From a virus (Duplodnaviria > Caudoviricetes), in the IMG/VR virus record IMGVR_UViG_3300016665_000157, positions 1 to 41,095 of that record: 41,095 nt of DNA; one strand, written 5' to 3'. Shown one piece after another: positions 1 to 33,979 of the stretch (its first letter is position 1; each line of letters begins with the position of its first letter). The notes beneath the pieces are model-generated. The model saw only the letters and a program-made list of their open reading frames with translations, was not told the DNA's origin and made no database searches. Position numbers and translations under genes: made by a program.

Positions 1-66
1 CTCCCGGCCAAAAATGCATACTTTTAGTTTCTCCCGGCGCGCCCCGCGCCCCGATTACCCGCGCTT

Positions 67-116
67 AGGGTTGCAATCGCGCCACATTACCATCGCGCAG
101 GGTTGCAATCGCGCCA
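67..116 (+). repeat. 18-bp direct repeat AGGGTTGCAATCGCGCCA (67-84, 99-116) near the genome end; possible terminase-binding/packaging element
   Basis: Exact duplicate read from the sequence; lies between the HNH gene and the genome end. Function is inferred. Confidence 0.7.
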
Positions 117-162
117 TTGGCTATGCGTTATGCATACTCGCGCATTACCAAACCCCGCAATG

Positions 163-176
163 TACCCCATGGGGTA
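163..176. repeat. Perfect 14-bp palindrome TACCCCATGGGGTA
   Basis: Seen directly; near-identical twin at 2904-2917. Confidence 0.85.
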
Positions 177-240
177 TAGCGGGCGGGCTTGGTTTGTGCT
201 GGGTTTGGGCCGGTATCGGCCAGCGGGGCGGGGCGGGCCG

Positions 241-666
241 CTAGGGGCGGGGCATATCGGCGGGCAGGGCCGCCAGGGAATAGTCAATCGGGCCGTTATC
301 GGTGTAATGACGGAAAACCCCACGCCCCTCAAGTCCCGTTTTGACGCTATGGCATGGCCCGCATAGGCTTTGCAAGGGGCTTGCATGGAAAGCCCATGGG
401 CCAAGCTTTCGCCACGGGATAACGTGATCAACGTGGGCCGCTTGCGTTACCCGGCCAGCAAGGGCGCAAGCTTGGCAAAGCGGGGCCATAGATAACTGGC
501 GCATACGGGCGCCATGCCATGCGGCCGTTTTGTATGCTTGATCGGACTGCAGCTTGGCCGCTTGCGGTTTGCTGGCGGGCGCATGGCCACCGCAAAACCT
601 ACTGCCCTTGATGCTAGGGGCTTTGCAACCGTAATGGGCGCATGGCGGGCGGGGCAGTGTAGGCAT
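241..666 (-). CDS. Packaging-associated HNH endonuclease (HK97 gp74-like)
   Basis: N-terminal CxxxGC...FCxxH zinc motif, PLCQAC...HVDHVIP...LQSLCGPCHSVKT HNH core; directly upstream of terS if the genome is circularised; ATG at 666 preferred. Confidence 0.9.
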   Translation of the reverse strand: MPTLPRPPCAHYGCKAPSIKGSRFCGGHAPASKPQAAKLQSDQAYKTAAWHGARMRQLSMAPLCQACALAGRVTQAAHVDHVIPWRKLGPWAFHASPLQSLCGPCHSVKTGLEGRGVFRHYTDNGPIDYSLAALPADMPRP

Positions 667-801
667 GGCCCCTAGTGTCGCTGACCGCACCAGGGCGCGC
701 ACCAGGGCGCATAAGGGTTTACCCTAAGATACAGAATGTTGGCAAACATGATGTAATGCATGCACGGTCAACGCTGACCGGGACACTATAGGACAACCCC
801 C

Positions 802-897
802 ATGCGTGAAAAAATCGTTGACATCGTAACCGCCGTTTGCATCGGCCTTGCCCTTGCCGCACTGGCTTTGCATGGCCTTGGTGCACTGATCCAATAA
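802..897 (+). CDS. 31-aa single-TM membrane peptide (MREKIVDIVTAVCIGLALAALALHGLGALIQ), not in ORF track
   Basis: AGGA RBS upstream, hydrophobic stretch, first ORF of the rightward operon. Confidence 0.6.
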   Translation: MREKIVDIVTAVCIGLALAALALHGLGALIQ

Positions 898-925
898 ACC
901 AAACCACACTACAGGATAAAACATC

Positions 926-1186
926 ATGATCGCAATTCACACAAAGCACATTGCCGCAACAAATACACGGGCGGCAAAGATCAAAGCATATAGCTGCAAT
1001 GGCCACAAAGTATTGGTGAGCATTGATTACTCGCTGGGTGACGTTGAGCGCCATGCAGTAGCCGTCAAAAAATTGATTGAAACCCAAATGCAATACACGC
1101 CCGATTACTCCGTTATGACCTATGGCGGGTCAGCTGACGGCAAGGGCTACACGTTATGTTTTATTCAATCAACTATTAAAATGTAA
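926..1186 (+). CDS. Hypothetical early protein
   Basis: 86-aa ORF with AGGA RBS, co-oriented in a compact operon. Confidence 0.75.
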   Translation: MIAIHTKHIAATNTRAAKIKAYSCNGHKVLVSIDYSLGDVERHAVAVKKLIETQMQYTPDYSVMTYGGSADGKGYTLCFIQSTIKM

Positions 1187-1198
1187 AGGGGCAAAACA

Positions 1199-1879
1199 AT
1201 GAAAATTATCCCCATCAAGAAGGCCGATGCCCGCGCCGTTTGTGGCACGCTCACCCAGACTAGCAAGATGCCCTGCAAATCCTCAAGCTTGCCCACGGAA
1301 GCTTGCATTACGGGTTTTCGCATGGCCCAAATCCCCGGTTCCATTTGCGCCATGTGCTATGCGGACAAAGGGTTTTACGCCATGTATCAAAACACAATCA
1401 AACCCGCGCAACATGCCCGCTTGGATGCGGTTTGGCAAGCCATGCAAAGCCCGGAATTAGCGCATATTTGGGTTAGCGCTATGGTGTCGTTGATCGGTAA
1501 CGACAAATATTTCCGTCATCACGATAGCGGGGACTTGCAAGGGCTTGCCCATCTTGAATTGATTGCCGATGTTGCCCGCGCCACGCCGCATTGCATGCAC
1601 TGGCTGCCGACACGGGAATATGGCATTGTGCGAGAGTACATTGCCAAGCATGGCGCGTTGCCCGATAACTTGATTGTGCGGTTATCGGCCATGTATCCCG
1701 ACAAACCCGTTAAAGTGCCCGCCAGCTTGGCCGATGTTAAAAACGTGACCGTGTCGAATGTGCATACCACTAGCGGGCGCGTGCATGGCATGGCATGCAA
1801 TGCACCGGACAATGGCGGGGCATGCGGGGATTGTCGGGCGTGTTGGACTGATGCGCCCGTGTCTTATGCTTTGCACTAA
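1199..1879 (+). CDS. Gp88-like protein (Cys-rich, possibly Fe-S/radical-SAM-like)
   Basis: Motifs SKMP..SSSLP..AC..G...GSICAMCYA, FRHHDSGD, WLPTRE and C-terminal CGDCRACW, typical of the phage GP88 family as recalled. Confidence 0.75.
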   Translation: MKIIPIKKADARAVCGTLTQTSKMPCKSSSLPTEACITGFRMAQIPGSICAMCYADKGFYAMYQNTIKPAQHARLDAVWQAMQSPELAHIWVSAMVSLIGNDKYFRHHDSGDLQGLAHLELIADVARATPHCMHWLPTREYGIVREYIAKHGALPDNLIVRLSAMYPDKPVKVPASLADVKNVTVSNVHTTSGRVHGMACNAPDNGGACGDCRACWTDAPVSYALH

Positions 1880-1891
1880 TAGGGGCTTGCA

Positions 1892-2212
1892 ATGAAAAAA
1901 CCGGTTTTTATGCTTTCCCGGCGCGGAATGGATCCCTTGCCGACACCATATCACCCGCTGATCTATACACGCATGAGCGATGCATGGCGTTTTGCTTTGC
2001 ACAAATCGGGGCGCGACTGGGCAGTGTCTGACATTGCCAGCGGGGCGCGGGTTTGTCGGGTTAGCGCATCATATAAGGGCGTGCCTGTAGCGTCTGGCAC
2101 GCTAACCCTAGCTCAGGCCCGACAATGCGCCCTTGCCGATATTGATGCAATAGTTGACCGCATAGGGTTTGAGCGGTTTGCGGCCGTACTGGCAAACCCC
2201 AAACCGTTTTAA
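1892..2212 (+). CDS. Hypothetical early protein
   Basis: 106-aa ORF preceded by AGGGGCTTGCA-ATG. Confidence 0.7.
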   Translation: MKKPVFMLSRRGMDPLPTPYHPLIYTRMSDAWRFALHKSGRDWAVSDIASGARVCRVSASYKGVPVASGTLTLAQARQCALADIDAIVDRIGFERFAAVLANPKPF

Positions 2213-2222
2213 GGGGCTTGCG

Positions 2223-2417
2223 ATGAGTTTTTTTTCTGATGTTGACATCATGCGGGGCAGTGATCCCCGCCCGTTTGGGGCTTGTCTGGCCGATGTCGCG
2301 CCCCGCTTCTACTGGCAATGCGGCCCCGCCGATACTAGCGGGTATGCACTGTTTGAATGCGCCGATACTGGCGCGATTGTGCGGTTTGCCCTTGCGGATT
2401 TTTGGCCGCTAATCTAG
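2223..2417 (+). CDS. Hypothetical early protein
   Basis: ATG at 2223 preceded by the same AGGGGCTTGC leader as 1892; followed by a terminator. Confidence 0.65.
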   Translation: MSFFSDVDIMRGSDPRPFGACLADVAPRFYWQCGPADTSGYALFECADTGAIVRFALADFWPLI

Positions 2418-2435
2418 CTAGCAAACCCAAACCCG

Positions 2436-2459
2436 CCCGGCCATGCGCCGGGTTTTTTT
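2436..2459 (+). terminator. Rho-independent terminator of the rightward early operon
   Basis: CCCGGC-catgc-GCCGGG hairpin followed by T7. Confidence 0.85.
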
Positions 2460-2479
2460 GGGCTTGCTATGTTAGTAAG

Positions 2480-2900
2480 CGCTCACTTCGCTAGGTTATC
2501 CCCGGCCCGTGTCTTGATGCTATGGGCGCGGGCGGGGATAGTTGCGCCCGGATATCGGCGCGGGGCTTTGCGGCCCGCTGGCGGGGCTTTGCTGCCCCTA
2601 GCGGGCGGGCGCATAGCGCGGCCCCTAGCGGGCGCGGGCTTGGCCGCATGGCGGGCTTGGCCGCATAGCGGGGCGCGGGCCATGCACTAGGGGCGCGGGC
2701 CGCACTAGGGGCGCGGGCGCGGGTTTTCCGGGCCGCTGGCGCGTGCATTGTGGCCGCTGGCGGGCGCGGGCGGGTTATGGGCGCGGGGCCGCTGGCCGCA
2801 TGGCGCGGGCATGGCGGGCGCGGGCGCAGCGGGCGGGTTTGTAGCGATTCCGACCTACAAACCGCGGGCGCGATGGGCGCCGGTACTCATTTGCGGGCGC
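2480..2900 (+). repeat. Non-coding polarised G-rich degenerate repeat tract
   Basis: About nine co-oriented GGGCGCGGG copies (2524-2824); tandem GCGGGCTTGGCCGCAT (2634-2649, 2651-2666) and GCACTAGGGGCGCGGGC (2684-2700, 2702-2718). Confidence 0.85.
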
Positions 2901-2903
2901 CGA

Positions 2904-2917
2904 TACCCCTAGGGGTA
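2904..2917. repeat. Perfect 14-bp palindrome TACCCCTAGGGGTA, with overlapping GGGGTACCCC palindrome
   Basis: Seen directly; differs from 163-176 only in the central dinucleotide. Confidence 0.85.
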
Positions 2918-2989
2918 CCCCAGACACCCTCGAGGGGTCGAAAAAATGGGTTACCCCACTACGCATTCTTAAAAAAAAAATTTTGAAAC

Positions 2990-3013
2990 AAAAAAAGCCC
3001 GGACGAACCGGGC
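2990..3013 (-). terminator. Rho-independent terminator of the leftward operon
   Basis: Minus strand GCCCGG-TTCGT-CCGGGC followed by T7. Confidence 0.85.
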
Positions 3014-3044
3014 TGAACATGGCAATTTTTTTTGGAAGGAAAAA

Positions 3045-3254
3045 TTATCCAAAATTATCTGGCAATGGATAAATTTTGCGCTGGATATTTTTGGCAGGAT
3101 TGGCTGACTCGTTGCTGACCTGGCTGACTTGGGTTGACTCACCTTTGTAGCCGTGCGCGTAGGCGGCGCGGGCTACTGCGAGGGCTTTTGATTTGCTGTC
3201 AAATGGCCCTTTGCTTCCCCAATACCAGCCGTCTTTGCGTTTGGTCAGCGGCAT
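3045..3254 (-). CDS. Small basic hypothetical phage protein
   Basis: MPL.K..DGWYWGSKGPF.SK.KAL.V..AAYAHGY; last gene before the terminator. Confidence 0.65.
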   Translation of the reverse strand: MPLTKRKDGWYWGSKGPFDSKSKALAVARAAYAHGYKGESTQVSQVSNESANPAKNIQRKIYPLPDNFG

Positions 3255-3261
3255 GATTTGC

Positions 3262-3648
3262 TCACTTGAACCGAGTCAGTTTGTAAATCGTTGACCGGCA
3301 CAGATCAGCAATTTCATCCACGATGTTTTGGATTTCCGTTTCCTGCGGGAAGCCATCCATTTTCCGCATCAGGTTGGTTTCATCAAACAGTTGGTTGACC
3401 AGCGCCAGACCATTTTCCCCAGGAAAATAGGGCTTCAAACTGGAAATATTTTGGCTTTTCCGCTGGAGGCAGGCTTCGGCCAGGGTGTCGGTCAAATCTT
3501 CCAGTCCTTCGTAGAACTCACCCAAGGCAATGTGTTCAGCATAGCTGACGCTGTTCAGGTGGTGGACATGGGCGGCGGTGACACCATGCAGCAGGCACAT
3601 GATGTAGTCGTTCAAGACGTTGGATTGCTCGTTGACGTTGAATCGCAT
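3262..3648 (-). CDS. Ferritin/Dps-like four-helix protein (DUF5856-like)
   Basis: HxxHL...SYAEHxALGEFYEGL....D.LAE and C-terminal IQNIVDEI......TIYKL pattern; AGGAG RBS. Confidence 0.7.
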   Translation of the reverse strand: MRFNVNEQSNVLNDYIMCLLHGVTAAHVHHLNSVSYAEHIALGEFYEGLEDLTDTLAEACLQRKSQNISSLKPYFPGENGLALVNQLFDETNLMRKMDGFPQETEIQNIVDEIADLCRSTIYKLTRFK

Positions 3649-3669
3649 GGCGTTCTCCTTGCGGGCATT

Positions 3670-4056
3670 CTAGCCCATGACCTCTTTCATGGCGAGATGG
3701 AATGTCTGCACCGGAATGGTTGTCCATTTTTCCACACAGATTTGCAAAGCATTGTCCACAGTGACTGCGTAATCCTTGCGCCATCTGAATCGCGCCTCAC
3801 TGCATTGTGTCAGGACGTTCATGGCCGAACGTAGCTTGCGGTATTCCACGCTTTGTGTCTGGCTCATTAGCTCATATGCCCGAGCCATGCTGAAGATGCC
3901 ATCTGCCAAGGGCACGATTAGTGCTTTGACATCCTCACCATCTTCGGCCAGGTACAGCTTGATCTGGCAATCCAGCATCAACTTCTTGAGCCGTTCTTTG
4001 GCATATGCCCGTGCGATGGGATTGCGGGCAATGTTGCGAGGCTTGATGTCAATCAT
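3670..4056 (-). CDS. Hypothetical protein
   Basis: ATG at 4056 overlaps the upstream stop (ATGA coupling). Confidence 0.7.
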   Translation of the reverse strand: MIDIKPRNIARNPIARAYAKERLKKLMLDCQIKLYLAEDGEDVKALIVPLADGIFSMARAYELMSQTQSVEYRKLRSAMNVLTQCSEARFRWRKDYAVTVDNALQICVEKWTTIPVQTFHLAMKEVMG

Positions 4057-4238
4057 GGTGCCTTTCCAAAGTAACGTGTGAGTTTGCCGTCTTTTTTCTT
4101 GACGATTGTCCAACCCTTTTCTTTTAGGTCGGCCAGGCGTCTGTGCGGGGTGACGCTAGGCAAGGTTTGAACAATATCCACGCTGGTGCAACCCATCCTG
4201 CGGGTCAACAGCTTTTTGAGTTTGTCCTGTTGTGTCAT
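4053..4238 (-). CDS. Small winged-HTH-like protein
   Basis: RRLADLKEKGWTI motif; ATGA coupled. Confidence 0.6.
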   Translation of the reverse strand: MTQQDKLKKLLTRRMGCTSVDIVQTLPSVTPHRRLADLKEKGWTIVKKKDGKLTRYFGKAP

Positions 4239-4408
4239 TTAGTCCTCGTTGCTCTGAATGTCCAACATCCCGCGCACATCCATTTGACAGGTGTCATTTG
4301 AATGCCCCCTTCTGGCAACTTTTCTGTCTTGCACTTGTAGCATTCTTTGAATTTATGCCCCTGAATTTTTTTGTCGTTCAGTACCAGTTGCTGCTTTACG
4401 AAACTCAT
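4235..4408 (-). CDS. 57-aa zinc-finger protein (CYKC...PEGG...WMCAGC), not in ORF track
   Basis: Manual translation MSFVKQQLVLNDKKIQGHKFKECYKCKTEKLPEGGIQMTPVKWMCAGCWTFRATRTK; two CxxC pairs; stop overlaps the next ATG. Confidence 0.7.
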   Translation of the reverse strand: MSFVKQQLVLNDKKIQGHKFKECYKCKTEKLPEGGIQMTPVKWMCAGCWTFRATRTK

Positions 4409-4571
4409 TCAACTTCTTTCTTGATTCTTGCTCTGCCATTTTGTACCCAGCAAAGAATGCCATTTCCATGACCTCTTTGCGCGGCATCATCTTGCTGTCC
4501 AACAAATAACCGTATTTGTTTTCGGCACGGCGTGTCCATTCAATAGCCAAACTGCGGGCGCTGATTTTCAT
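4353..4571 (-). CDS. Hypothetical protein
   Basis: ATGA-coupled ORF in the leftward operon. Confidence 0.55.
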   Translation of the reverse strand: MKISARSLAIEWTRRAENKYGYLLDSKMMPRKEVMEMAFFAGYKMAEQESRKKLNEFRKAATGTERQKNSGA

Positions 4572-4795
4572 GCTACTTCCTCGATTATTTTGATTTGATT
4601 CATCGGAACCCAGCGTTTAGATGACCACATCCCTAACCCTTTTACTTCAACCAAAAAGCTGAATCGCGGCTCAACAAAATCTGATCCAGTCGCATCAATG
4701 TAACGGCCAGTGGGGCGAACAATTGTCACGGTTCCAAAGTCCATGACCGCAATTTGCTTCTTTTTCAGAATTTCGGATACGTCAATTTTGCTCAT
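4568..4795 (-). CDS. Hypothetical protein
   Basis: Start MSKIDV at 4795 overlaps the upstream stop. Confidence 0.6.
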   Translation of the reverse strand: MSKIDVSEILKKKQIAVMDFGTVTIVRPTGRYIDATGSDFVEPRFSFLVEVKGLGMWSSKRWVPMNQIKIIEEVA

Positions 4796-5172
4796 GCTGC
4801 ACCCCCAGTCGCTTTGGCGATGGCGGCATCCAGTAAATCTATGGCGTTGCCTTTGCTGCCATTGCACATCCATTCGCCACCGTTGCCCATTGTCTCGTCC
4901 CAGTAGCAGATGGCGAAATCTTCTTCGCTGTCATTGGCGAACCGATACCGTTCGGCATCAGCCCGCAAAGCCTCAAGCTCATCTCCACGCAGATACCATT
5001 CGCGTTCAAAGTGTTCGGCTTGATCGTTGGCTTTATTTAGGCTGACCCTCAGGGCTTCGTTTTCTGCATGTAAGCGGCGAAGCTCAAATGCGGCTTCTTT
5101 TATCCATCGCGTGGACGCGCTCATATGATCCAGCCAATCAGCCAGCAGCAGGGATTTGGATTGTGTGCTCAT
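4792..5172 (-). CDS. Hypothetical phage protein (ELRRLH / DAERYR motifs)
   Basis: Start MSTQSK at 5172, ATGA coupled; motifs common in proteobacterial phage accessory ORFs. Confidence 0.65.
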   Translation of the reverse strand: MSTQSKSLLLADWLDHMSASTRWIKEAAFELRRLHAENEALRVSLNKANDQAEHFEREWYLRGDELEALRADAERYRFANDSEEDFAICYWDETMGNGGEWMCNGSKGNAIDLLDAAIAKATGGAA

Positions 5173-5870
5173 GCCATCACCTCGTAGTCGTGAAACACGC
5201 AACCAAGATCTGCTCGACCAACTTTGCACGGTTTGACCCACACATTCTTGCCAGAACGCAAGCGCCGGACATGGCCCCTGCGGTCGTGCAGCCTGGGCGA
5301 TGCGTGCGTACCGCCCTGCGGCTCATTGCGGGCCTCTTTGGCCTTGATGTAGACCGTAGTCCAATCGTATGTCGGCGGCTTGCCCTGGGCGATTTTGCGC
5401 TGGTTGGTGAATGTCTGTTTGACCACGGGCCGGTAAACGGCACAACCTTTGTCCATGGAAGACAGCCACATGGCGACCAGCGACAGCATCAGCTCGGCCA
5501 CATCCTGCGGCACCTCGTGATTTTCATCTGCTGGGCCATATCGAATCTGCCCTTCATCAATCACGTAGACCAGGGGTGGAAACGTTTCCTGTTTGCCGGG
5601 TGGCCCTTTGGTGATGTCCACCACAATACCCTCCTGCGGATCAGATCCAGCCACCAGCATCATGACTTCGTAGTATGGATGCGTCTTGCTTTGCCCGCCA
5701 TACAGAACCAAACTCTTCTCAAACGGTGGCCGGTGCGTTTCCAGATACTTGAGGTTGACGGCCCGGTCGCCGGAAAAGACATCAGACACATCAAACCACT
5801 GCACTTCTGTCGGGTCAAAGCCAGCACCAATGACCGCCTTCATGATCGAGCGAATCAGTGGGGTGGTCAT
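5169..5870 (-). CDS. Conserved hypothetical protein with GGTHASPRxHxRRGH motif
   Basis: 233-aa ORF coupled at both ends; His/Arg-rich C-terminal motif. Confidence 0.75.
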   Translation of the reverse strand: MTTPLIRSIMKAVIGAGFDPTEVQWFDVSDVFSGDRAVNLKYLETHRPPFEKSLVLYGGQSKTHPYYEVMMLVAGSDPQEGIVVDITKGPPGKQETFPPLVYVIDEGQIRYGPADENHEVPQDVAELMLSLVAMWLSSMDKGCAVYRPVVKQTFTNQRKIAQGKPPTYDWTTVYIKAKEARNEPQGGTHASPRLHDRRGHVRRLRSGKNVWVKPCKVGRADLGCVFHDYEVMA

Positions 5871-6235
5871 GCCTGCCCCCTTGCGCGGATGGCGGCGGCG
5901 CAGTCAGCACACGCCGCAAGAAACAGTGCTTCATCTCTTGCTGGGATTGTTTGCTTCATATAGTGCTGAGCCAGCGTCTCATCACACACTTTCGCACACG
6001 CCTCCCGCTCAGCAGCGATTTCGCGCTGCATGTACTCGACGGTCACGGTGCCGTGCTGCGTCGGCTGGTTCTCGGGGTCGGTGAAAAGCTGCATCATGGC
6101 TTTGCGCTCGGCAGCAGCGACAAGGGCGGCGAAATCTACAAGGGTGTCCACCCAACCGTCATAGTTGCAGAGCGTATCGCTTTCAGGATCAATTCCAACT
6201 TCCCGCGCTATGCAGATGATGTCTTCTTGATTCAT
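5867..6235 (-). CDS. Hypothetical protein, EREACA motif family
   Basis: AAEREACAKVC...CAAAIRARG; start 6235. Confidence 0.7.
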   Translation of the reverse strand: MNQEDIICIAREVGIDPESDTLCNYDGWVDTLVDFAALVAAAERKAMMQLFTDPENQPTQHGTVTVEYMQREIAAEREACAKVCDETLAQHYMKQTIPARDEALFLAACADCAAAIRARGQA

Positions 6236-6483
6236 GCCTGGTTCCTTTCTCTGATGGCGGCGGCGCAAGCACGCGCCTCCATATCTTCGCGGTTACAGTC
6301 GCCCATGTCTCGGTCATCGCATACTTGAGCGCAAGCCTCACGTTCAGCAGCGGCTCCAGCGGCATAGGCGGCATGGAAAAAGCGTTCAAGTGCTTTCCAG
6401 TCGGAATCAGAAATCAGCGAGGGGTACTTTGCCGCTGGAATCCCAGCTTCCAGTGCCATGCGAATAGTGTCATCGCGGGTCAT
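6232..6483 (-). CDS. Hypothetical protein, EREACA motif family
   Basis: AAAEREACAQVC...CAAAIRER; paralogous to its neighbour. Confidence 0.7.
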   Translation of the reverse strand: MTRDDTIRMALEAGIPAAKYPSLISDSDWKALERFFHAAYAAGAAAEREACAQVCDDRDMGDCNREDMEARACAAAIRERNQA

Positions 6484-6830
6484 GCGTTTTTTTCCTTCAG
6501 CTTACTATTAGCCCATTGAGCGCCAGCCAAAAAAGCAGGATCGTCACATGAGCAATCGGGCATGTCATCCCATGTCAGTCCCACCCACGGCTTGCGTTGT
6601 GGGAGTATGTAGAGGGGCGTGCCATTCGGCACATCCGACTCGATGCAAGCGTTCTTTATGCGCTCACCGTGAACCGAATACACATACCCAACCGGCTTCT
6701 GCTGTGCTGGCTGCTCCAGCGCTTGGCGCAGGGCGGCTTGAGCAAACTTAGCCACGGGGAATGGCATGGCCTTGTCAATCTGCTTCAACGCCTCCAGCGC
6801 CATGCGTGCTGCTTTCTCAAGGTCGCTCAT
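6480..6830 (-). CDS. Hypothetical phage protein (ALEAL..., WVGLT..., LKEKN motifs)
   Basis: Start MSDLEK at 6830, ATGA coupled. Confidence 0.65.
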   Translation of the reverse strand: MSDLEKAARMALEALKQIDKAMPFPVAKFAQAALRQALEQPAQQKPVGYVYSVHGERIKNACIESDVPNGTPLYILPQRKPWVGLTWDDMPDCSCDDPAFLAGAQWANSKLKEKNA

Positions 6831-6985
6831 TCTTCCCCCTTTTTGCCGCACCAGTTGCACTCACCCTGCACATCAATGTAGGTTTTTTCAACAGGGCAAA
6901 AATGTTGCCACAGTCGCGCCTCAATCCACTCGGTGTATTGCTGGTCAGGGCAGGGAGGTTCTTTAGGTTCTTGAGGTTCTGTCAT
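6827..6985 (-). CDS. Small Cys-containing hypothetical protein
   Basis: HFCP...CNWCG; start MTEPQ at 6985. Confidence 0.55.
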   Translation of the reverse strand: MTEPQEPKEPPCPDQQYTEWIEARLWQHFCPVEKTYIDVQGECNWCGKKGEE

Positions 6986-7311
6986 GTCTTGTCCGGCAGT
7001 GGAATGTTGATCGGCCACAGTCCCTGCTCCACCAGGCATTGAACTGTGCGTTCATGGGCATTCTGCCATAGATTTATTCGCTCTTGTTTAGAAAACCCTT
7101 TGCCCTGGTCAAGTAAAAAATGGCATTTGTAACAGAGCGATGCAATGCGGTTGTCATCGGCTTTGATGCCACGACCTTTGCCATGAATGGATTGGTTGCT
7201 GTGAGCCGCAACCACAGTGCCGTCATCTGCGCCGCAATGTTGGCATGGGATATGGCGGGCGTTGGTAAGCAATTCCTTGCTGCGGATGTATTGGTGTTTC
7301 GGATATTTCAA
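6982..7311 (-). CDS. DUF1364-like zinc-binding putative nuclease
   Basis: CQHCG...TVVAAHSN...GKGRGIKADD...C..CH..LD. Confidence 0.75.
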   Translation of the reverse strand: MKYPKHQYIRSKELLTNARHIPCQHCGADDGTVVAAHSNQSIHGKGRGIKADDNRIASLCYKCHFLLDQGKGFSKQERINLWQNAHERTVQCLVEQGLWPINIPLPDKT

Positions 7312-7606
7312 TGGTCACTCCGTTTTGGGCACACCAGGCCATCAAGTATTCGGTGAACTCAATAGCTTCTTCCTTGGTCAGCTTGTGGCTTTGCAAGCCC
7401 AACTGAACAATCCCTTCGCCATCCAGCGCGGGAACAACCTGGCTCGGTTTCTCGCCGCGCTCCCTGCGCCAGTTGTAGAGGTGCAGACGTTTCCAGTCAT
7501 CTGTTGTCCAGCGGCTTCCCAAATGGGTTGCTTGCTTTGCGATTTGCCCCAAGATGCTGTGGAACATCTTGTTCTGCTGGCCAGAACGTTGTACGTCAAT
7601 CTTCAT
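7223..7606 (-). CDS. ninB: NinB/Orf-like recombination protein
   Basis: RS..QN...H..L..IAKQ....G......DWK.L, VP.LDG...V.LG..S..L...E..E..EYL.AW. Confidence 0.75.
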   Translation of the reverse strand: MKIDVQRSGQQNKMFHSILGQIAKQATHLGSRWTTDDWKRLHLYNWRRERGEKPSQVVPALDGEGIVQLGLQSHKLTKEEAIEFTEYLMAWCAQNGVTIEISETPIHPQQGIAYQRPPYPMPTLRRR

Positions 7607-7859
7607 GAATGGCTTTCAGGGCATCTTCCGGGCTGTTGACCCGGACAAGTGATGGGGCAGGCCAGTTGGCAAAAAAATCTTCTTGCAATGCGGTCAACTT
7701 GCTTTTGCGCGTGGTTTTGACTTCCATCAGCAAGGTCTTGGTTTTGTAGCCGACCAGCAAATCCACTGGACGGCCAATCACCCACACAAATGCCCCAGCG
7801 TTTCGCAGCGCCTGAACGATTTGCTTTTGATTGGCGTCAGTGCGTGCGGCTCTACGCAT
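7596..7859 (-). CDS. PD-(D/E)xK nuclease, VRR-NUC/resolvase-like
   Basis: RAAR.DANQ..IV.ALR..GA, VDLLVGY, MEVK. Confidence 0.75.
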   Translation of the reverse strand: MRRAARTDANQKQIVQALRNAGAFVWVIGRPVDLLVGYKTKTLLMEVKTTRKSKLTALQEDFFANWPAPSLVRVNSPEDALKAIHED

Positions 7860-8604
7860 TCAACAGCTTCCAAGCGGTTGCGGCACACAATGGGACTTGT
7901 CCATTCCCAATGGCTTTAAGTCTGTCCACCCTGCTGGATAACCCATCATTGCTTCCGAATGTTCTGGGATCGGATACGTCAGGCCAAATTTGATTTTGCA
8001 CCAGTGCCTTAGTTGGTCTGTTCTTTCTCGTCCTGTTTTGCTGTGAACAGTTACTGTCCCGCCTTTCCAATCGTCTGCTAATGGAGTTGGCAACAATCCA
8101 GATTCGTTCGCGTTTATGAGAGGCTCCGACAGCGTTTGCTCCCAACACTCCCCATCTCGCATCAAACCCCATCTCGGCCAAATCTCCGAGAACGGTTCCA
8201 AGTCCCCGAGAAACGAGCATTGGTGAGTTCTCCACAAAGACGAATCTTGGTCGTACTTCGCAAATGATCCTTGCCATTTCTCTCCACATTCCGCTTCGTT
8301 CTCCGTCAAGTCCATCTCCTTTTCCTGCGGCTGAGATGTCTTGGCACGGAAATCCTCCAGATACAACGTCAACAATTCCTCTCCACGGCTTTCCGTCAAA
8401 GGTTTGAACGTCATCCCAAATCGGGAAAGGCGGGAGAATCCCGTCATTTTGTCTGGCGGCAAGTACGCAAGCTGCGTAAGGTTCCCATTCAACGGCGCAG
8501 ACTGTTCGCCATCCGAGCAATTTGCCGCCAAGGATTCCTCCCCCTGCTCCGGCAAACAAAGCGAGTTCATTAAGGCTTGGCTGATTAACCACATGATTTA
8601 CCAC
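7852..8604 (-). CDS. DNA (cytosine-5) methyltransferase, main (alpha) polypeptide
   Basis: Motif I LFAGAGG, IV GGFPCQDIS, VI ENS, VIII HKRERIW, X LKAIGNGQVP; no recognisable motif IX. Confidence 0.92.
   Translation of the reverse strand: MVNHVVNQPSLNELALFAGAGGGILGGKLLGWRTVCAVEWEPYAACVLAARQNDGILPPFPIWDDVQTFDGKPWRGIVDVVSGGFPCQDISAAGKGDGLDGERSGMWREMARIICEVRPRFVFVENSPMLVSRGLGTVLGDLAEMGFDARWGVLGANAVGASHKRERIWIVANSISRRLERRDSNCSQQNRTRKNRPTKALVQNQIWPDVSDPRTFGSNDGLSSRVDRLKAIGNGQVPLCAATAWKLLNA
7860..8594 (-). CDS. Overlapping alternative-frame ORF, putative MTase beta polypeptide carrying motif IX
   Basis: 244 codons open in a second frame; contains LLPTP and PEHSEAMMGYPAGWTD resembling motif IX. Confidence 0.6.
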   Translation of the reverse strand: MWLISQALMNSLCLPEQGEESLAANCSDGEQSAPLNGNLTQLAYLPPDKMTGFSRLSRFGMTFKPLTESRGEELLTLYLEDFRAKTSQPQEKEMDLTENEAECGEKWQGSFAKYDQDSSLWRTHQCSFLGDLEPFSEIWPRWGLMRDGECWEQTLSEPLINANESGLLPTPLADDWKGGTVTVHSKTGRERTDQLRHWCKIKFGLTYPIPEHSEAMMGYPAGWTDLKPLGMDKSHCVPQPLGSC

Positions 8605-8804
8605 TTTCCGTCCTCAACATATTCTTGGTTGTAACGGTTCGGCACGCGCCGACACTTGCTTTTTTTGACCCAGATTGGCGGCGCAGGAAACGGCCAAATT
8701 GGATTGATGACCGACAGATGCAACGCATCATCCGTGCGGTTGATTTCAAGGGCTTGTTCGCCCGTTGGAAGTTCCCAGAGGTCGCCTTGCATCACATCAT
8801 CCAA
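8598..8804 (-). CDS. Hypothetical protein
   Basis: 68-aa ORF filling the operon gap. Confidence 0.55.
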   Translation of the reverse strand: MDDVMQGDLWELPTGEQALEINRTDDALHLSVINPIWPFPAPPIWVKKSKCRRVPNRYNQEYVEDGKW

Positions 8805-9178
8805 GCAGAAGCAATATCGGGCCGGGGCTTGAATTGCCTGCGGCGCTTTGCGGCCAAGTAGTCCAAGTATTTTTCAGGATCGGCTTTGGTGCGCTCCCAT
8901 GCACGAGCATAACGTTCGTTTTTGCTCATTGGCGCGGGTTTTGGGGCGTTTTCGCCCTGCCCCGCCACATAGACCTTCACCGGATACCAATTCGCGCCCA
9001 CACGGTCATATCGTGCGATGTGGACACGGTTGTTGTCCAACAAGTATTGCAGGTAGCGACTGGCAGTGTGCGGGTCAACAGCAATTGCCTCTGCAACTTG
9101 GTGTTTGTTCATCCCATCACCCAGCACCTCGAGGATGCGTTCAATCTTGAGCAACGCAGGGCCGCGAGTGAATTTCAT
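8792..9178 (-). CDS. HTH DNA-binding protein
   Basis: MNKHQVAEAIAVDPHTASRYLQYL HTH; start MKFTRG at 9178. Confidence 0.7.
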   Translation of the reverse strand: MKFTRGPALLKIERILEVLGDGMNKHQVAEAIAVDPHTASRYLQYLLDNNRVHIARYDRVGANWYPVKVYVAGQGENAPKPAPMSKNERYARAWERTKADPEKYLDYLAAKRRRQFKPRPDIASAWMM

Positions 9179-9194
9179 GCTGTTGTATTTCAAT

Positions 9195-9683
9195 TTATTT
9201 TTCCGTTTTTTCCGTATATTTATAATCGCCATGATGCATATTAACTGCTTGATGATAAATTTTTATTGCATCTTCAAGATTTTTGTATTTTCCTAAATAA
9301 ATTTTTTTCCCGTATTTTGATATTTGCGGCACCCATCTTTTATCTTGTTTGCTCCAGGTAATTCCTTTGTAACCGCTTGCACTGTTTGTATATTTTCGAT
9401 TAAAGGAATTTTGCGAAGCATTTGCTTCTCTTAAATTTTCAATTTTGTTATTTTGTGGATTCCCATCAATATGGTCAACAATTTTTGGCAAATATCCATA
9501 ATGCATTAAAAATATTGCTCTATGCACAAGCATGTATTTGTAATTTAATTGGAAATGCAAATAGCCTGCTTTTGTTTTTGATCCTGCCATTGCACCTGCT
9601 TTTGTGCCTTTTCTGCTGGTTTTCCAATAAAGACATCCGTCTTTATATTCCAGTTCATTAAGCAATATTTGCTGTGTAAGCAT
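9195..9683 (-). CDS. HNH homing endonuclease with C-terminal AP2-like domain
   Basis: VHRAIF..HYG..P..VDHIDGNPQNNKIENLR; SGYKGI.W.....RW...I....K..YLG; AT-rich relative to flanks. Confidence 0.9.
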   Translation of the reverse strand: MLTQQILLNELEYKDGCLYWKTSRKGTKAGAMAGSKTKAGYLHFQLNYKYMLVHRAIFLMHYGYLPKIVDHIDGNPQNNKIENLREANASQNSFNRKYTNSASGYKGITWSKQDKRWVPQISKYGKKIYLGKYKNLEDAIKIYHQAVNMHHGDYKYTEKTEK

Positions 9684-9721
9684 GTCGCACCTCATCATTG
9701 GTGGAAGTCATCATTGAAAGA

Positions 9722-9772
9722 TAACAGCAGGACGGTGATGAGTCGTCTTTTCCCCCGCTAAAGGTAGCTGTT
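9722..9772 (-). ncRNA. c4/CI-like antisense RNA upstream of the HNH gene
   Basis: AACAGC/GCUGUU closing stem, small hairpin, GAAAA bulge, GACG/CGUC stem with loop ACUCAUCAC complementary to two downstream UGAUGA(G) sites. Confidence 0.7.
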
Positions 9773-9781
9773 GCAATCATT

Positions 9782-9976
9782 CTACAACAATTTTTCTTGT
9801 TGCATCAATACCATATAAGCCCTGATGCGTCCAACACTTCCAGGGCCATATCTTTTTTCAATCATCTCGATGCGCTCAGGCGTCAGCACTTTTTGCTTTG
9901 TCCACAGCCATGTCCTGTACAAAACCCTAGCCTCGGCACGCTCAAGAATCTGTCTGTCCGTCAATGATGTTTCCAT
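9782..9976 (-). CDS. Hypothetical protein
   Basis: 64-aa ORF in the operon. Confidence 0.65.
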   Translation of the reverse strand: METSLTDRQILERAEARVLYRTWLWTKQKVLTPERIEMIEKRYGPGSVGRIRAYMVLMQQEKLL

Positions 9977-10145
9977 TTATGCAACGATACCACAAACGAT
10001 CTTTGCTAACAATTTTTTCTTCGGCGGCAAGAGAACGCATCACGTACTTGATCTGCAACTCTGTGTAACCAGTGACTTCGCGGATTTGCTTGCGGGTCAG
10101 CGGGCCATGCATCAACAGCTTTTGGATAACTTCTGTGCGGGTCAT
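9942..10145 (-). CDS. Small winged-HTH protein
   Basis: LLMHGPLTRKQIREVTG...L; ATGA coupled to the rep gene. Confidence 0.65.
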   Translation of the reverse strand: MTRTEVIQKLLMHGPLTRKQIREVTGYTELQIKYVMRSLAAEEKIVSKDRLWYRCINGNIIDGQTDS

Positions 10146-10867
10146 ACTTTTTTCAGGACGGATTGAATTTGTTGACGGATGTGGTCAGGCATGGGAGCCG
10201 CCAGCTTGCGGTCGTTTTCTATCTTAACCAAAACAGGGTCAGGTTCTTTGGGGCCAGGAACAGTTGACCGGGCAATGTCGGCAGCACGTTGAGCAAAGGT
10301 TGCTCGTTCAACAGGCTTGATCCAATCGGCTTGGAGTCCTTGCGATCCACGCGAACACCAAATGGCAAGAAATTCGTTGATGGACATATCGGCCTTCTTG
10401 GCTTCCCGAAACGCAGCGTTGACCACGGTCTGCGTCACGGGTGCTTTTTTGGCTTTCCTGAGTTGCTTCCAATCTTCCCAAATTTGTTGGTCAACATCAG
10501 GGGGGCGGGCAACGCCAGTTGCCTTCTTCTCTGTCTCTGTCTCTGTCTCTCTCTCTGTCTCTGGTGCATCACTTTGATATCGCTCTGATATCACGTTGAT
10601 ATCATCATGTTCCAGCCAATGTGACAGCTTGGAAACGCAATCAGAAGTTTGCTTTTCTGACATCCTTAGCCGAAAAGCCAAGGTTTTGATGTCAGGAATG
10701 ACTCCATCAGCTTCACTTGCGATCAACCAGCACATGACCAGCACTTTGCTGGCAAGTGGATCAAGTTGATGCCATTCCATGTCATCCAGAAGTTCTCTGT
10801 ACAGCTTGATCCAAGGAGGTCTGCGATCCTTGAAATGCTGAAATTTAGACCAGTTTTTGATCTTCAT
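10142..10867 (-). CDS. Phage replication initiator protein (lambda O/DnaD-like architecture)
   Basis: N-terminal IKNWSKFQH.K.R.PPWIKLY, ETE linker, C-terminal W.DW...RK.KKAP.T...GSQGL.ADW. Confidence 0.75.
   Translation of the reverse strand: MKIKNWSKFQHFKDRRPPWIKLYRELLDDMEWHQLDPLASKVLVMCWLIASEADGVIPDIKTLAFRLRMSEKQTSDCVSKLSHWLEHDDINVISERYQSDAPETERETETETEKKATGVARPPDVDQQIWEDWKQLRKAKKAPVTQTVVNAAFREAKKADMSINEFLAIWCSRGSQGLQADWIKPVERATFAQRAADIARSTVPGPKEPDPVLVKIENDRKLAAPMPDHIRQQIQSVLKKV
10529..10603. other. Putative replication origin inside the rep gene
   Basis: TGATATC x3 at 11-bp period (10575, 10586, 10597) next to a CTCTGT repeat with strong purine/pyrimidine strand bias. Confidence 0.6.
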
Positions 10868-14556: not shown

Positions 14557-14762
14557 GATTTCATGTGGCTTATTACCCAACTGACAACGCCTCCAACACC
14601 AGAGGCAATTGTCATTCCCATCCAAAACCCACCTTTGGACTTGTTGGCAAGTTCAAGAAGTTCCTGAATCTGGCCTTCCATCTTGTCCATTTTTTTGTCC
14701 ATGTTTTGAACGCGCTCCCACAGCACGCCATACTTTACGGGGTCAATTTCATTCGGTTCCAT
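14553..14762 (-). CDS. Small coiled-coil plus C-terminal TM protein (holin/XhlA-like)
   Basis: Coiled coil then GGFWMGMTIASGVGGVVSWVI. Confidence 0.7.
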   Translation of the reverse strand: MEPNEIDPVKYGVLWERVQNMDKKMDKMEGQIQELLELANKSKGGFWMGMTIASGVGGVVSWVISHMKS

Positions 14763-15807
14763 GGCTCATGAACTCAAGGTTGGCAATCAGACGAGAATTG
14801 TCCGGGGCAAATTTTAATGCCTCACGGCACAACTGGGTAGCCTCATCTTTGAGTCCAAGATTCCAGGCGCAAATACTCGCCAAATCCCAAGGCTTCTCAG
14901 TCCAAACAGAAGGATCCATTGTGTAAACCAGCGCCTTGTCTTTGATTGCAAGTGCACTTTTCGCCGCAGCATAACCCTCTGCCCACATGCTTAAACGATA
15001 GCAAATCATGGACAGTTCAACCCACGGCTCACGGGTGCCTGGTGCCTCTGCAACGGCCAGCCGCGCCCATTTGATTGCCTCCCAACTATTCCCAAGTTCA
15101 TCGTGGCACTTGGACAAAAGGCGCATGGCATAGCATCGCTCGTTCTGCCAGGTTGCCTCGGGCATTGCCAGATACTTTGTCAGCGCCTCAATGGCTTCTT
15201 GCCAGCGGCTGTAAAACGTCAATTCTCGCGCATGGTAAAAAGCGTTGCGCGGGCAATGCGGGTCTTCCTTGACCGCCAACTCAAGCAGCGGCATGTATTG
15301 TCCACGGCTCTTTGTCGGATCAGGATGATGGCTGACCAGCAACATGTCCGTGTGAGCATAGACCTCGGTGATCCTTGCATCAGCGCGGGGGTACTCATGC
15401 ACCGGGTGGTGCCAGTGATAGCCGTGCCGGTGGTGAATTTTTTCGTAGTAGAAACTGATGCCACAACCCCAGTCAAATTTGTATCGCAGACGGGTCGTGT
15501 CATCTTTCCAAAGGCGCTCAATTTCCTCGCGCCAGCCAGGCTCAAGCACTTCATCAAGGTCAAGCGAAATGCACACATCAAAGTCGCCAGGGATGAGCGC
15601 AAGAGCCGCATCACGGGCTTTGTCAAACCGCCAGGGTTTGATGCAAATGTCATAGACAAATGCACCAGCTTCATGTGCCAGTTTGGCTGTCTTGTCTGTT
15701 GAGCCAGTGTCAGCAATCAAAATCAGATCGGCATCTTTTGCGGACTCACAAAAGCGTTGCACAAACTGTTGCTCATTCTTGCTGATTGCATAGACTGCAA
15801 TTTTCAT
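14749..15807 (-). CDS. GT2 family glycosyltransferase with C-terminal TPR repeats
   Basis: KNE....RF..S, DTGSTDKT, F..AR..AL, SLDLDE (DxD), VHE, TPR-like helices; ATG 15807. Confidence 0.9.
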   Translation of the reverse strand: MKIAVYAISKNEQQFVQRFCESAKDADLILIADTGSTDKTAKLAHEAGAFVYDICIKPWRFDKARDAALALIPGDFDVCISLDLDEVLEPGWREEIERLWKDDTTRLRYKFDWGCGISFYYEKIHHRHGYHWHHPVHEYPRADARITEVYAHTDMLLVSHHPDPTKSRGQYMPLLELAVKEDPHCPRNAFYHARELTFYSRWQEAIEALTKYLAMPEATWQNERCYAMRLLSKCHDELGNSWEAIKWARLAVAEAPGTREPWVELSMICYRLSMWAEGYAAAKSALAIKDKALVYTMDPSVWTEKPWDLASICAWNLGLKDEATQLCREALKFAPDNSRLIANLEFMSHGTE

Positions 15808-15823
15808 GTCTTGTCCTGTTTTT

Positions 15824-16321
15824 TTAAATATTGGTGGGTTCACTTACGCTGTCGCTGACAACGAACGGATCGGGGTCGATGTAGCCAGGCTCCTTGGGCC
15901 AGACCACTTCCCACGGGAAGCCTGCCTGCTGGGTCACATCGCGCAGTTCCTGACGATACACGGCCCAGACAGCGCTGTCCACAGGGGCATCAGGCAACTG
16001 AGTCCAGTCGCACTGGTAAAGCAGCACGTCACGCTGTTTGCGTACCTCTGCCGCCTGCGCCTCAGTGCGCTGCTGGAGTTCTTCGGGGGTCAGCGGCTCG
16101 GCCTTGACTGTGTAGACCATGCCGTCTTGGATGTACGGCGTGGTTGCCACTAGCTTCTCGGTCGCTTGGTCATACGGAACCCATACCGACACCGGCATGA
16201 GGTCGTTTTCCTGCATGAACGACGGGTTGGGGCCGCTGGGCGCAAAGCTCGTGTCCGGGAACATCGCCGTGTAGTCCGCGATGTCGAGCACTTGTCCATC
16301 TACTACTTTTGCAACAAGCAT
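15824..16321 (-). CDS. Tail fibre assembly chaperone
   Basis: VRKQRDVLL..CDWTQLPDAP....WAVYRQELRDV.QQAGFPWEV.WP..P. Confidence 0.85.
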   Translation of the reverse strand: MLVAKVVDGQVLDIADYTAMFPDTSFAPSGPNPSFMQENDLMPVSVWVPYDQATEKLVATTPYIQDGMVYTVKAEPLTPEELQQRTEAQAAEVRKQRDVLLYQCDWTQLPDAPVDSAVWAVYRQELRDVTQQAGFPWEVVWPKEPGYIDPDPFVVSDSVSEPTNI

Positions 16322-16330
16322 GGTGTGTCC

Positions 16331-20627
<4,297 letters not shown>

Positions 20628-30275: not shown

Positions 30276-30458
30276 TCATTCCTCTGTCAGAGGGGCCGGG
30301 TTGTACTTTTGCAAGAGTTGCAGGGCAACATACTCAGCGGTGTCAGGCGTAGCCTTAAACGCCGCAAGTTCAGCAGCATCCACGGGGAGACTGCGGGCAA
30401 CAACTTCAATGTCGCCCATAGTCTCCACGATCAACTTGATAGCGTCCTTGGCTTTCAT
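30276..30458 (-). CDS. Hypothetical protein in the tail module
   Basis: 60-aa ORF, TAATG-coupled. Confidence 0.65.
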   Translation of the reverse strand: MKAKDAIKLIVETMGDIEVVARSLPVDAAELAAFKATPDTAEYVALQLLQKYNPAPLTEE

Positions 30459-30976
30459 TAGTTGTTCGACCAGCCGTACTGGTTGCCTCGGGGATGGATT
30501 GTAAACACAGCTTTGGCTTCCGCACCGGGCTGGGCATCAATCTGGAAGTTGCCAACGCGACCGTTGAACGCATATGCAACCGTGTTGGTGCCATCAACAG
30601 CGGCAACCACGAACGTGCGGTCAACCGTGCCGTTGTAGGCGTCAGCGCGGATTTGCAGCAGCGCGGCATCGCTGGGGTTCCAGGCGGCGGTGATGGTCAG
30701 GCTGGTCGGCGCAGATTGGGTCGGAATCTTGTCCGACTGGCGCGAACCGGCAACAGCATAGTTCGCCATTGCATCATCCATACCGAAAGCCGGGATGGCC
30801 TCGGCGGGAATTTGCACGCCAGCAGCGCCTGTGCCGTTGGCAGCGGTGCCAACAATGGTCTGCACTTGCGATGCCCACACCGACAGGTTTGCTGTCGTGA
30901 ATGCGCTCGGCGTAGCAGCCGATTGCATCCACATGCTTGCGGAAAAGCCGGGAAGGACTTTGCTCGGGATCGACAT
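30458..30976 (-). CDS. Major tail tube protein, paralogue 2
   Basis: Highly similar to 30986-31480; AAGGAG RBS; position before chaperones. Confidence 0.75.
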   Translation of the reverse strand: MSIPSKVLPGFSASMWMQSAATPSAFTTANLSVWASQVQTIVGTAANGTGAAGVQIPAEAIPAFGMDDAMANYAVAGSRQSDKIPTQSAPTSLTITAAWNPSDAALLQIRADAYNGTVDRTFVVAAVDGTNTVAYAFNGRVGNFQIDAQPGAEAKAVFTIHPRGNQYGWSNN

Positions 30977-30985
30977 GATTGCTCC

Positions 30986-31480
30986 TTAAGCGTTGTTTGA
31001 CCAGCCGTACTGATTGCCACGGGGGTGAATGGTAAACACCGCCTTGGCTTCAGCACCAGGCTGCGAGTCGATTTGGAAGTTGCCCACACGGCCATTGAAG
31101 GCGTAGTAAACAATGTTTGTGCCATCGGTGGCCGAAACCACGTAAGTGCGATCCACAGTGCCGCTGTAGGCATCAGCACGCACCAGCAGCAAGTTGGTGT
31201 CGCTGGGGTTCCAAGCAGCCGTGATCGTCAGGCTTGTCGGGGCCGATTGCGTGGGAATCTTGTCCGATTGACGCGAACCAGCCACGGCATAGTTTGCCAT
31301 CGCATCGTCCATGCCAAACGCAGGGATCGCCTCAACAGGCAGTTGGTTGGCCGACACGGCAATGGGCGACACGCTGGCAACCAGGGCCAGTTGAGCAGTC
31401 GTCAAAGGGGTCGGATTAGCGCCGGGTTGGCAGTAGAGGGCAGCACTGAAACCAGGCAAGACTTTGTTAGGCAGAGCCAT
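30986..31480 (-). CDS. Major tail tube protein, paralogue 1
   Basis: Follows the tail terminator; AAGGA RBS; beta-rich C-terminus F.GRV..F.I......AK..FTI. Confidence 0.75.
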   Translation of the reverse strand: MALPNKVLPGFSAALYCQPGANPTPLTTAQLALVASVSPIAVSANQLPVEAIPAFGMDDAMANYAVAGSRQSDKIPTQSAPTSLTITAAWNPSDTNLLLVRADAYSGTVDRTYVVSATDGTNIVYYAFNGRVGNFQIDSQPGAEAKAVFTIHPRGNQYGWSNNA

Positions 31481-32965: not shown

Positions 32966-33979
32966 TTACGCAGACAGACGGGCACCAGCAAACGGGTCGC
33001 GCACAGTGCTAACCACACGCTTTTCCGCATAGATGGTCAAGAAGCCAGGAGCAGTCTGTTCAAAGACTTGGATGCTCATTTCTTCATTGTCACCGATTGT
33101 CAGGAATCGCGGCCAGTTGGCAAGGTAAATCGGGAAAGACGAGGACAGGTACGGGTTCGGCACCACAGGGAAGCCAAACATACGAGCCACAGCGCCACCA
33201 TCCTCGTCACCCACCTCAAGGAACAGCGGCAGACCTTGCGTGTCCTTCAGTTGGCGCAACGATTGGATCATTGCAGGCGACACATGCCAAGCATTACCGG
33301 GCAGGCTCCAGTATTGGCTGGGGAAGGCATTGACCACGTTCACAATGTCGTTGTACGCAATTGTGCCGCCAGCCTGGGCCACAGTTGCCAGCGTGTGAAT
33401 GCCGCTTGTGATGGCTGTGCCAGAGGTGCCATAAGCGGCAGTCGAGGCACTTGTGTACATGGCAAGACCACGCAAGCCAGAAGTCGCGCCAGTGGCCGTT
33501 GTGGTCGAACCAGACTGGTCGTTGTTGATCGCCATCGAGGCGGCTTCCTGTTGGCCGAATTCCAGCGCCAGGTCATCAACAATCGCGGCTTGTAGGCCGT
33601 TCACATCCGACATCACAGCAGTGCGGATAGGCAATTGAGCCGTGATCGCACGCACAGGCAATTGCCAAATGCTTGTGTCGGTGTTCGGGGTGCCGGTGTT
33701 GTTCTGCACCGGATAGCCCCAAGGATTTGTTTGGTAAGTTGCGTTACCAGTCTTGGCAACGAACTGCGCGTCACTGCCAGACACGGGAATGATTCGTGCG
33801 GCTTGACGGAAAGGATTGGCGTAACGCAGTGTGGCGAACGCATCATCAAACAGAACGCGACCACCCACACCAGAGCCAGAGCCAGTGATGGCAGATGCTT
33901 CCTTCAGGTCGATGGTGACTTTGCTGCCCTGTTCATAGGCTTCTTTGATGCCAGCAAGGATTTTTTCGGTAATGGTCAT
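32966..33979 (-). CDS. Second HK97-fold capsid protein with short N-terminal leader
   Basis: Colinear similarity to 34043-35392 from LKEASA to VRDPFAG. Confidence 0.88.
   Translation of the reverse strand: MTITEKILAGIKEAYEQGSKVTIDLKEASAITGSGSGVGGRVLFDDAFATLRYANPFRQAARIIPVSGSDAQFVAKTGNATYQTNPWGYPVQNNTGTPNTDTSIWQLPVRAITAQLPIRTAVMSDVNGLQAAIVDDLALEFGQQEAASMAINNDQSGSTTTATGATSGLRGLAMYTSASTAAYGTSGTAITSGIHTLATVAQAGGTIAYNDIVNVVNAFPSQYWSLPGNAWHVSPAMIQSLRQLKDTQGLPLFLEVGDEDGGAVARMFGFPVVPNPYLSSSFPIYLANWPRFLTIGDNEEMSIQVFEQTAPGFLTIYAEKRVVSTVRDPFAGARLSA

Follow-up and report, generated by a model that had tools for sequence, protein, structure and literature searches.

This work deals with one end of a tailed-phage genome, the virus record IMGVR_UViG_3300016665_000157 (Duplodnaviria; Caudoviricetes), which was obtained from freshwater metagenomes and was analysed over its whole length of 41,095 bases (hereafter the window). 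Pfam matches on the minus strand give an HK97-type arrangement (terS, a Mom-like gene, terL, portal, protease, two capsid-family genes, tape measure and tail), and the order terS-terL-portal-protease-capsid, with an HNH nuclease gene beside the cohesive-end site (cos), is that of the HK97-like cos siphoviruses. The end opposite terS, positions 1-2950, is a block that differs from the rest of the genome. It holds the HNH gene and an inward-pointing operon of five plus-strand genes (802-2417), both of which had been reported by a first-pass annotation made from the sequence alone, and one third of it is non-coding. The results described below show that this block is a real, positional terminal leader purged of the site geometry of Type I restriction systems. 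Its features are collected in Table 1.

Table 1. Position, strand and basis of assignment of the features at the leader end of the window and of terS at the other end (aa, amino acids; nt, nucleotides; ORF, open reading frame; pLDDT, predicted local distance difference test).
Feature	Position	Strand	Basis
Leader block, Type I geometry and asymmetric A-words depleted	1..2950		Word counts, facing-pair counts, change point
Physical genome end, cos end opposite terS; 10-nt cohesive segment absent from the assembly	1..60		Contig ends, junctions of relatives
HK97 gp74-type HNH packaging nuclease, core gene with the signature	241..666	-	Pfam HNH, PHROG 144
palA, conserved 12-bp palindrome upstream of the operon	714..726		34/98 loci
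31-aa hydrophobic ORF, first in the inward operon	802..897	+	Sequence; no family matched
86-aa conserved phage protein, PHROG 3199, small alpha/beta fold	926..1186	+	72 homologues; model pLDDT 93.7
GP88 (PF17338), predicted partial TIM barrel, C36-X13-C50-X2-C53	1199..1879	+	Pfam, alignment, model
106-aa ORF, common to 7 block clusters	1892..2212	+	Clustering
64-aa ORF, commonest block family after GP88 (26 loci)	2223..2417	+	Clustering
Terminator-like hairpin and T-run closing the inward operon	2435..2461	+	Consensus match only
palB, conserved palindromic site near the inner edge	2475..2490		35/98 loci
GC-rich non-coding repeats, then C/G runs and A-tracts; candidate injection-stop region	2500..2996		Sequence, repeats
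Terminator-like hairpin just beyond the block, belonging to the convergent minus-strand genes	2996..3014	-	Consensus match
DUF5856 / PHROG 858 gene, landmark just outside the block, not purged	3262..3648	-	Pfam, PHROG
terS	40953-40531	-	Pfam

The compositional distinctness of positions 1-2950 claimed by that annotation is borne out by word counts compared with the expectation from the rest of the window. GCCC (99 observed, 24 expected), GCGC (55 and 16), GGCC (39 and 14) and CATG (35 and 14) are commoner in the block, and GAG/CTC (20 and 50), GAA (30 and 96), CAG (53 and 118) and GAAC (1 and 26) are rarer; GAC is also depleted. The step in composition falls between the bins at 2801 and 3001, that is, at about 2.95-3.0 kb, and the roughly 500 bp that follow the operon terminator are as strongly purged as the genes of the block. 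Two details of the earlier description stood only in part: the low GAG/CTC count of the block was recovered, but the capsid gene has 8.4 such words per 0.6 kb instead of about 12; and the CTG share among leucine codons is indeed lower in the block (24% versus 37%), but TTG and CTT together are not distinctive (23/42 leucine codons in the five block genes and 135/262 in six large structural and packaging genes).

Examples of Type I sites with spacers of 6-7 bases are given in the available text of two studies (PMC10644984, PMC12455610), and an 8-base spacer appears in that of a study of Polynucleobacter (PMC7522526). A Type I site was modelled as a pair of adenine half-sites in facing orientation, separated by a spacer: 18 rule-defined trinucleotides were counted facing their own complements at spacers 0-15, and back-to-back pairs served as control. 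In the block, facing pairs at spacers 5-8 number 511 against 640 expected (0.80; 0.79, 0.75, 0.83 and 0.82 at spacers 5, 6, 7 and 8, respectively), whereas back-to-back pairs show no depletion (656 against 640). Elsewhere in the window the ratio for facing pairs is 0.99, with a minimum of 0.92 over 141 overlapping windows. A wider adenine set gives 0.89 in the block, against 1.02 for the C control and 0.99 for the G control. The signal has its change point at 2931, and adjacent 1-kb bins of the window pass from 1.03 to 0.62.

The same signature is obtained when the encoded proteins are held fixed. Under synonymous shuffling, GP88 genes (n=104) give 0.87 and 0.88 at spacers 6 and 7; these genes are related, and their z-scores therefore overstate independence. 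HNH genes (n=20) give 0.86 (z -7), whereas genes for terS (6), terL (5), portal (5), capsid (8) and DUF5856 (27) remain at 0.99-1.02, the last at 1.02. Since HNH is purged, whereas terS, across the cos site, and terL are not, the signature depends on position and not on origin; the proposal that the bias is positional rather than a recent foreign insert is thus upheld. The related proposal of a purge of defence motifs holds for Type I geometry and asymmetric A-words and fails for 4- and 6-bp palindromes, which are not purged from the block of the window and are even avoided less there than elsewhere.

That position 1 is a physical terminus, as had been supposed, is indicated by several independent assemblies. 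Contigs from runs X2, X6 and X7, belonging to three other studies, stop at base 1, as does locus L001; the X1 contig does so too, and is counted apart because X1 is possibly the source run. The IMG/VR record G001 shares both the first and the last bases of the window, the latter 142 nt past terS. Among the 12 listed loci found through HNH, four (L168, L169, L173 and L175) span the junction and carry 10 extra bases between both end sequences, and three (L167, L170 and L171) end at the stop point of the window itself. Such a fixed end, with a 10-base junction in the relatives, places the block at the genome end opposite terS. The available text on HK97 gives 10-nt 3' overhangs in the legend of Fig. 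1 and 12 nt in the Discussion (PMC9410871). The 10-base gap fits trimmed 10-nt 3' overhangs like those of HK97, and from the loss of these bases we infer the 3' polarity of the cohesive ends. A long terminal repeat was considered and rejected, as no end repeat is among the repeats shown for the window and contig depth, a weak measure, is not higher over the block (20.3 versus 19.9, and 20.9-23.5 versus 22.3-22.9). In another phage, whose terminase is different and which has a 723-aa gene of portal size, an independent contig begins exactly at the outer block edge (position 8554 of L006, position 1 of L008), which suggests a fixed end there too.

The block is found at the same end in relatives, as the first-pass annotation had anticipated. 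Loci carrying GP88 (11, plus the best 80 of 457 viral matches and the best 80 of 530 metagenome matches) were dereplicated to 105, the window included, and a word model trained near GP88 delimits a sharp block in nearly all of them, with a median length of 2867 bp (range 1244-4968) in the 43 loci that have both edges inside the contig. With GP88 removed, the dip in facing pairs is seen in 100/103 loci and that in back-to-back pairs in 53/103. Outside the blocks 42/59 loci are also negative, yet the mean is only -0.01, against -0.10 inside. The words lost, pooled over 59 loci, are GAAC, GAAG, AGTT, AAGA, AGGA, CGAG, GAGT and CAAC. In the GP88 genes of 50 loci, protein fixed, NAC codons pass to NAT and NAG codons to NAA without a general shift to AT, with GGAG reduced to 0.43 and GAAG to 0.45. 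The ribosome-binding sites of the block move toward GGGG, which precedes the start codon of 63/344 block ORFs and 61/1239 ORFs outside, the values for GGAG being 53/344 and 272/1239. A terminase pointing away is the nearest large gene past the outer edge in 42/43 loci with enough flank (39 of these terminases are named by PHROG and three belong to the same family as named ones), and the loci are spread over several terminase families.

GP88 is not a necessary factor. For ten relatives found through HNH the cos end served to set the orientation (L166 and L177-L180 were left out, and L168 is too short); the nine HK97-like relatives are all purged, their first 2.5 kb giving 0.58-0.85 (two of them, L169 and L170, are near-identical). 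No GP88 hit was obtained in any of the seven whose sequence covers the whole block. Besides, Caulobacter phage Seuss carries GP88 in the middle of its genome and has no block, and Roseobacter phage CRP-2 shows no Type I signal. The gene content of the blocks turns over fast, with 232 clusters among 543 ORFs. In the X2 contig the 86-aa ORF is cleanly omitted (916-1192), so that block genes are gained and lost among close strains.

The closest resemblance among well-studied phages is with T5, whose positions 1-9700 give 0.84 against 1.01 in the next 30 kb, that is, the same Type I signature, and whose change point (9339) falls within the annotated stop signal (9140-10149), an edge as sharp as that of the window. 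The word pattern is also shared with the block (rho 0.39). In T5 and BF23, according to the available text of one study (10.1101/866236), an inward operon is followed by non-coding DNA rich in repeats and palindromes, with convergent genes on its far side, a layout like that of the window. They differ in having a 10-kb leader and a terminal repeat, whereas the leader of the window is of about 3 kb, unique, and belongs to a cos phage. In T7 the first 3000 bases give only 0.94, diffusely and without a sharp step; the early-injected region of T7-like phages (the one with Ocr) has small variable genes, as the block does, in another type of virion. HK97 and Methylophilaceae phage P19250A share with the window the order of the head module, the HNH gene before the cos end and a 10-nt cos, but the last 3 kb of HK97 (0.91 versus 0.96) and the end bins of P19250A (1.07 and 1.04) show neither a block nor an inward operon, and P19250A was consequently discarded as cultured model. 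In P19250A DUF5856 abuts HNH, which indicates that operon and purge come together as a module between these two genes. Another cultured phage, Acinetobacter phage Mithridates, has GP88 in a terminal inward operon facing genes on the opposite strand, as in the window, with 0.86 and 0.88 at spacers 6 and 7 and a word pattern correlated with that of the block (rho 0.63); it differs in its 97-kb genome, in a weaker overall signal of 0.93 over spacers 5-8 and in the lack of palindrome contrast. In the literature searched (largely open access, main texts) neither a leader of this kind in cos siphoviruses nor any function of GP88 was found.

Homologues of GP88 stand close to record ends in several cultured phages and mid-genome in others. 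The model, a confident one (pLDDT 87), is a partial barrel with weak structural matches to QueE (Z 5.4, root-mean-square deviation 4.2, 140 aligned), viperin (5.1) and pyruvate formate-lyase activase (5.0), tied with chitinases (5.9); Foldseek found no match at E <= 0.001, and no meaningful result came from sequence searches of PDB and NCBIfam. Its CX13CX2C motif, a non-canonical three-cysteine pattern, is invariant in 31/31 sequences and close to the CX14CX2C motif given for QueE in the accessible part of the source (PMC4389238). GP88 is only a candidate radical-SAM-like protein (SAM, S-adenosylmethionine). A SAM-consuming role, which would suit Type I, Type III and bacteriophage exclusion (BREX) systems as targets, is proposed with considerable doubt, by analogy with the SAM-cleaving enzyme of phage T3. 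As for the other products and sites, the 86-aa protein has no structural match at Z 5 or more, and structure and atlas searches gave no lead. The density of palA is 1.83 per 10 kb inside blocks and 0.21 outside, and it is likely to be a protein-binding site. A 19-bp palindrome, which we take to be Fur-box-like, is enriched in blocks (26/98 loci), its sole match in the window (1198-1216) overlapping the GP88 start codons; seeds presumed to be FadP-like and TetR-like showed no clear enrichment in blocks.

At the inner edge, palB reaches 2.69 copies per 10 kb inside blocks and 0.025 outside, a difference of about 100-fold. It lies downstream of GP88 in 20/65 loci, with its last copy 101-617 bp inside the edge, and in 16 of these 20 it adjoins DUF5856, which suggests that palB is a candidate part of a stop signal. 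A search for palB as a host site in a single bacterial bin gave one near match, which is uninformative. The stretch 2420-3060, taken as a single strand, gives a folding z of -5.5. A small basic ORF together with DUF5856 (3045-3648, minus strand) is found next to the inner edge in many relatives whose head types differ.

In lambda-like phages the end opposite terS is packaged last and ejected first. By this paradigm, the block at the cos end opposite terS would likely be packaged last and enter the cell first. The inward operon would then be expressed first and its products would block Type I and similar SAM- or ATP-dependent restriction systems, an anti-restriction role that we infer; GP88, as a SAM-consuming enzyme, may be one such product without being required. 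The remaining 38 kb would probably be held back at the repeat-rich inner edge and enter afterwards. Experiments with T5-like phages (PMC10644984) and with murciaviruses (PMC12455610) show that Type I restriction depends on the location of the site, and for the latter the available text states that Type I motifs have an effect only in the DNA that enters first. A purge of first-entering DNA is considered very probable, and its combination with a dedicated pause is moderately favoured; the interpretation as a whole, a Type I-purged first-entering leader with an anti-restriction operon and a probable pause at the inner edge, is regarded as probable.

Several observations weigh against this interpretation. 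Anti-restriction proteins such as Ocr, ArdA and SAM lyase are well known, and no known anti-restriction family was found among the block ORFs of the window (an Ocr-like family included) or among 118 block proteins of relatives. Neither is there a PHROG match to T5 A1 or A2 among the block ORFs, none of which has the size of A1, and DUF5856, tried as an A2 homologue, has no similarity to it (E 0.41). An exact DnaA-like seed, comparable to the DnaA boxes of T5, is absent from the block of the window and present in 10/98 blocks; a long direct terminal repeat is absent from the repeats shown for the window, and the relatives have a cos junction. Single-position adenine sets give 0.94, within the background range of the window. 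Beyond the edge, pooled relatives stay at 0.94-0.97 for 1.5 kb without immediate return to 1, and palB is missing from the edge in 45/65 loci. Finally, relaxed palindrome avoidance is not predicted by plain first-in exposure: 6-bp palindromes are at 1.05 inside blocks and 0.51 outside in pooled loci (49/50 loci) and at 0.72 and 0.40 in the block and the rest of the window, whereas the T5 leader does the opposite and avoids palindromes more (0.69 against 0.84).

This relaxation was not accounted for as a by-product of word purging, since a 5-mer-matched null gives about 2550 palindromes against 2478 observed. GC-only palindromes are below 1 under a Markov null and at 0.95 under synonymous shuffling, so that the word-purging explanation is not established. 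Our best guess is that, in a fast-changing block, Type II sites are under weak selection site by site, and that this is overridden by a strong, all-or-none selection against Type I-like sites.

The same purge could also arise without a dedicated stop, if entry were slow or pulled, as in T7, by host RNA polymerase transcribing the inward operon, and the edge were simply the end of the pull or of the time window. The terminator-like site that closes the operon does lie about 500 bp short of the edge, with everything beyond on the opposite strand; the signal of the pooled loci changes with a slight gradient after the edge, and an edge with palB or A-tracts is missing in many loci. Nevertheless, the 500 bp past the terminator are purged as much as the genes, and T7 lacks the step seen between adjacent bins in the window and in T5, so this alternative is thought unlikely. 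It is less likely still that the block is the unmodified part of the virion DNA, an enzyme such as the Mom-like protein shielding adenines elsewhere. The window has a Mom-like gene and a C5 methylase, CAG, GAG and GAC are depleted, and modification would account for the bulk of the genome ignoring Type I geometry; but a Mom homologue was matched in only 3 of the listed loci, whose flanks are partial, and we know of no mechanism that would spare 3 kb from modification. According to the available text, T5 DNA lacks non-canonical bases (PMC10644984), and yet T5 shows the same signature and shares the word pattern.

A foreign or fast-evolving cassette, with a composition due to its origin, its codon habits or its non-coding share, is the least probable explanation and is judged highly improbable. 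The fast gene turnover and the large non-coding share would agree with it, as would the direct contact of DUF5856 with HNH in the closest cultured relative, by which the operon is an insertion. It is largely refuted by the spacer effect, an orientation- and spacer-specific adenine effect that is not obtainable from codon usage, and by the protein-fixed result for the core HNH gene, to which terS across the cos site stands in contrast; the signature is, moreover, the same with or without GP88.

The leader described here is a variant of the T5/T7 strategy in small phages, and it adds 40-kb cos siphoviruses and several other terminase types to the T5- and T7-like phages in which restriction-purged first-injected leaders were known. 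The sequence test, calibrated on T5, locates leaders and edges that palindrome counts miss, and a few hundred small uncharacterised proteins are set apart as a compact collection of possible restriction inhibitors. That palindromes are less avoided in the block is a surprise for simple first-in exposure. In broader terms, and only tentatively, T5-style two-step entry could be a portable 2-4 kb module present in many small freshwater phages of unrelated head types, with a stop signal of its own and a stock of uncharacterised inhibitors acting on Type I, Type III and BREX systems, which would include GP88 as a SAM-destroying protein of radical-SAM type, and the spacing statistic might map the first-injected DNA of any phage from its sequence alone.

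Regarding the host, a GP88 search in 185,579 species genomes gave a single match, which lies on a 6.9-kb contig of a Burkholderiales bin; among cultured phages, P19250A has the closest terL (62% identical). Both similarities point to the Betaproteobacteria as host group. The Mom-like DNA-modification gene (40079-40534, minus strand; PHROG 1384, E 3.5e-34) lies between terS and terL, and a C5 methylase gene is also carried by the window. A homing-endonuclease-like, AT-rich gene (37734-38378, minus strand) separates terL from portal. The tandem capsid-family genes (32966-33979 and 34043-35392, minus strand) are also found as a pair in P19250A. A direct repeat of 300 bp with 78% identity (30458-31480, minus strand) gives two paralogous genes in the tail region, and a collagen-repeat fibre gene stands beside a laminin-G/lectin fibre gene (16331-20145, minus strand), followed by a glycosyltransferase gene (14749-15843).

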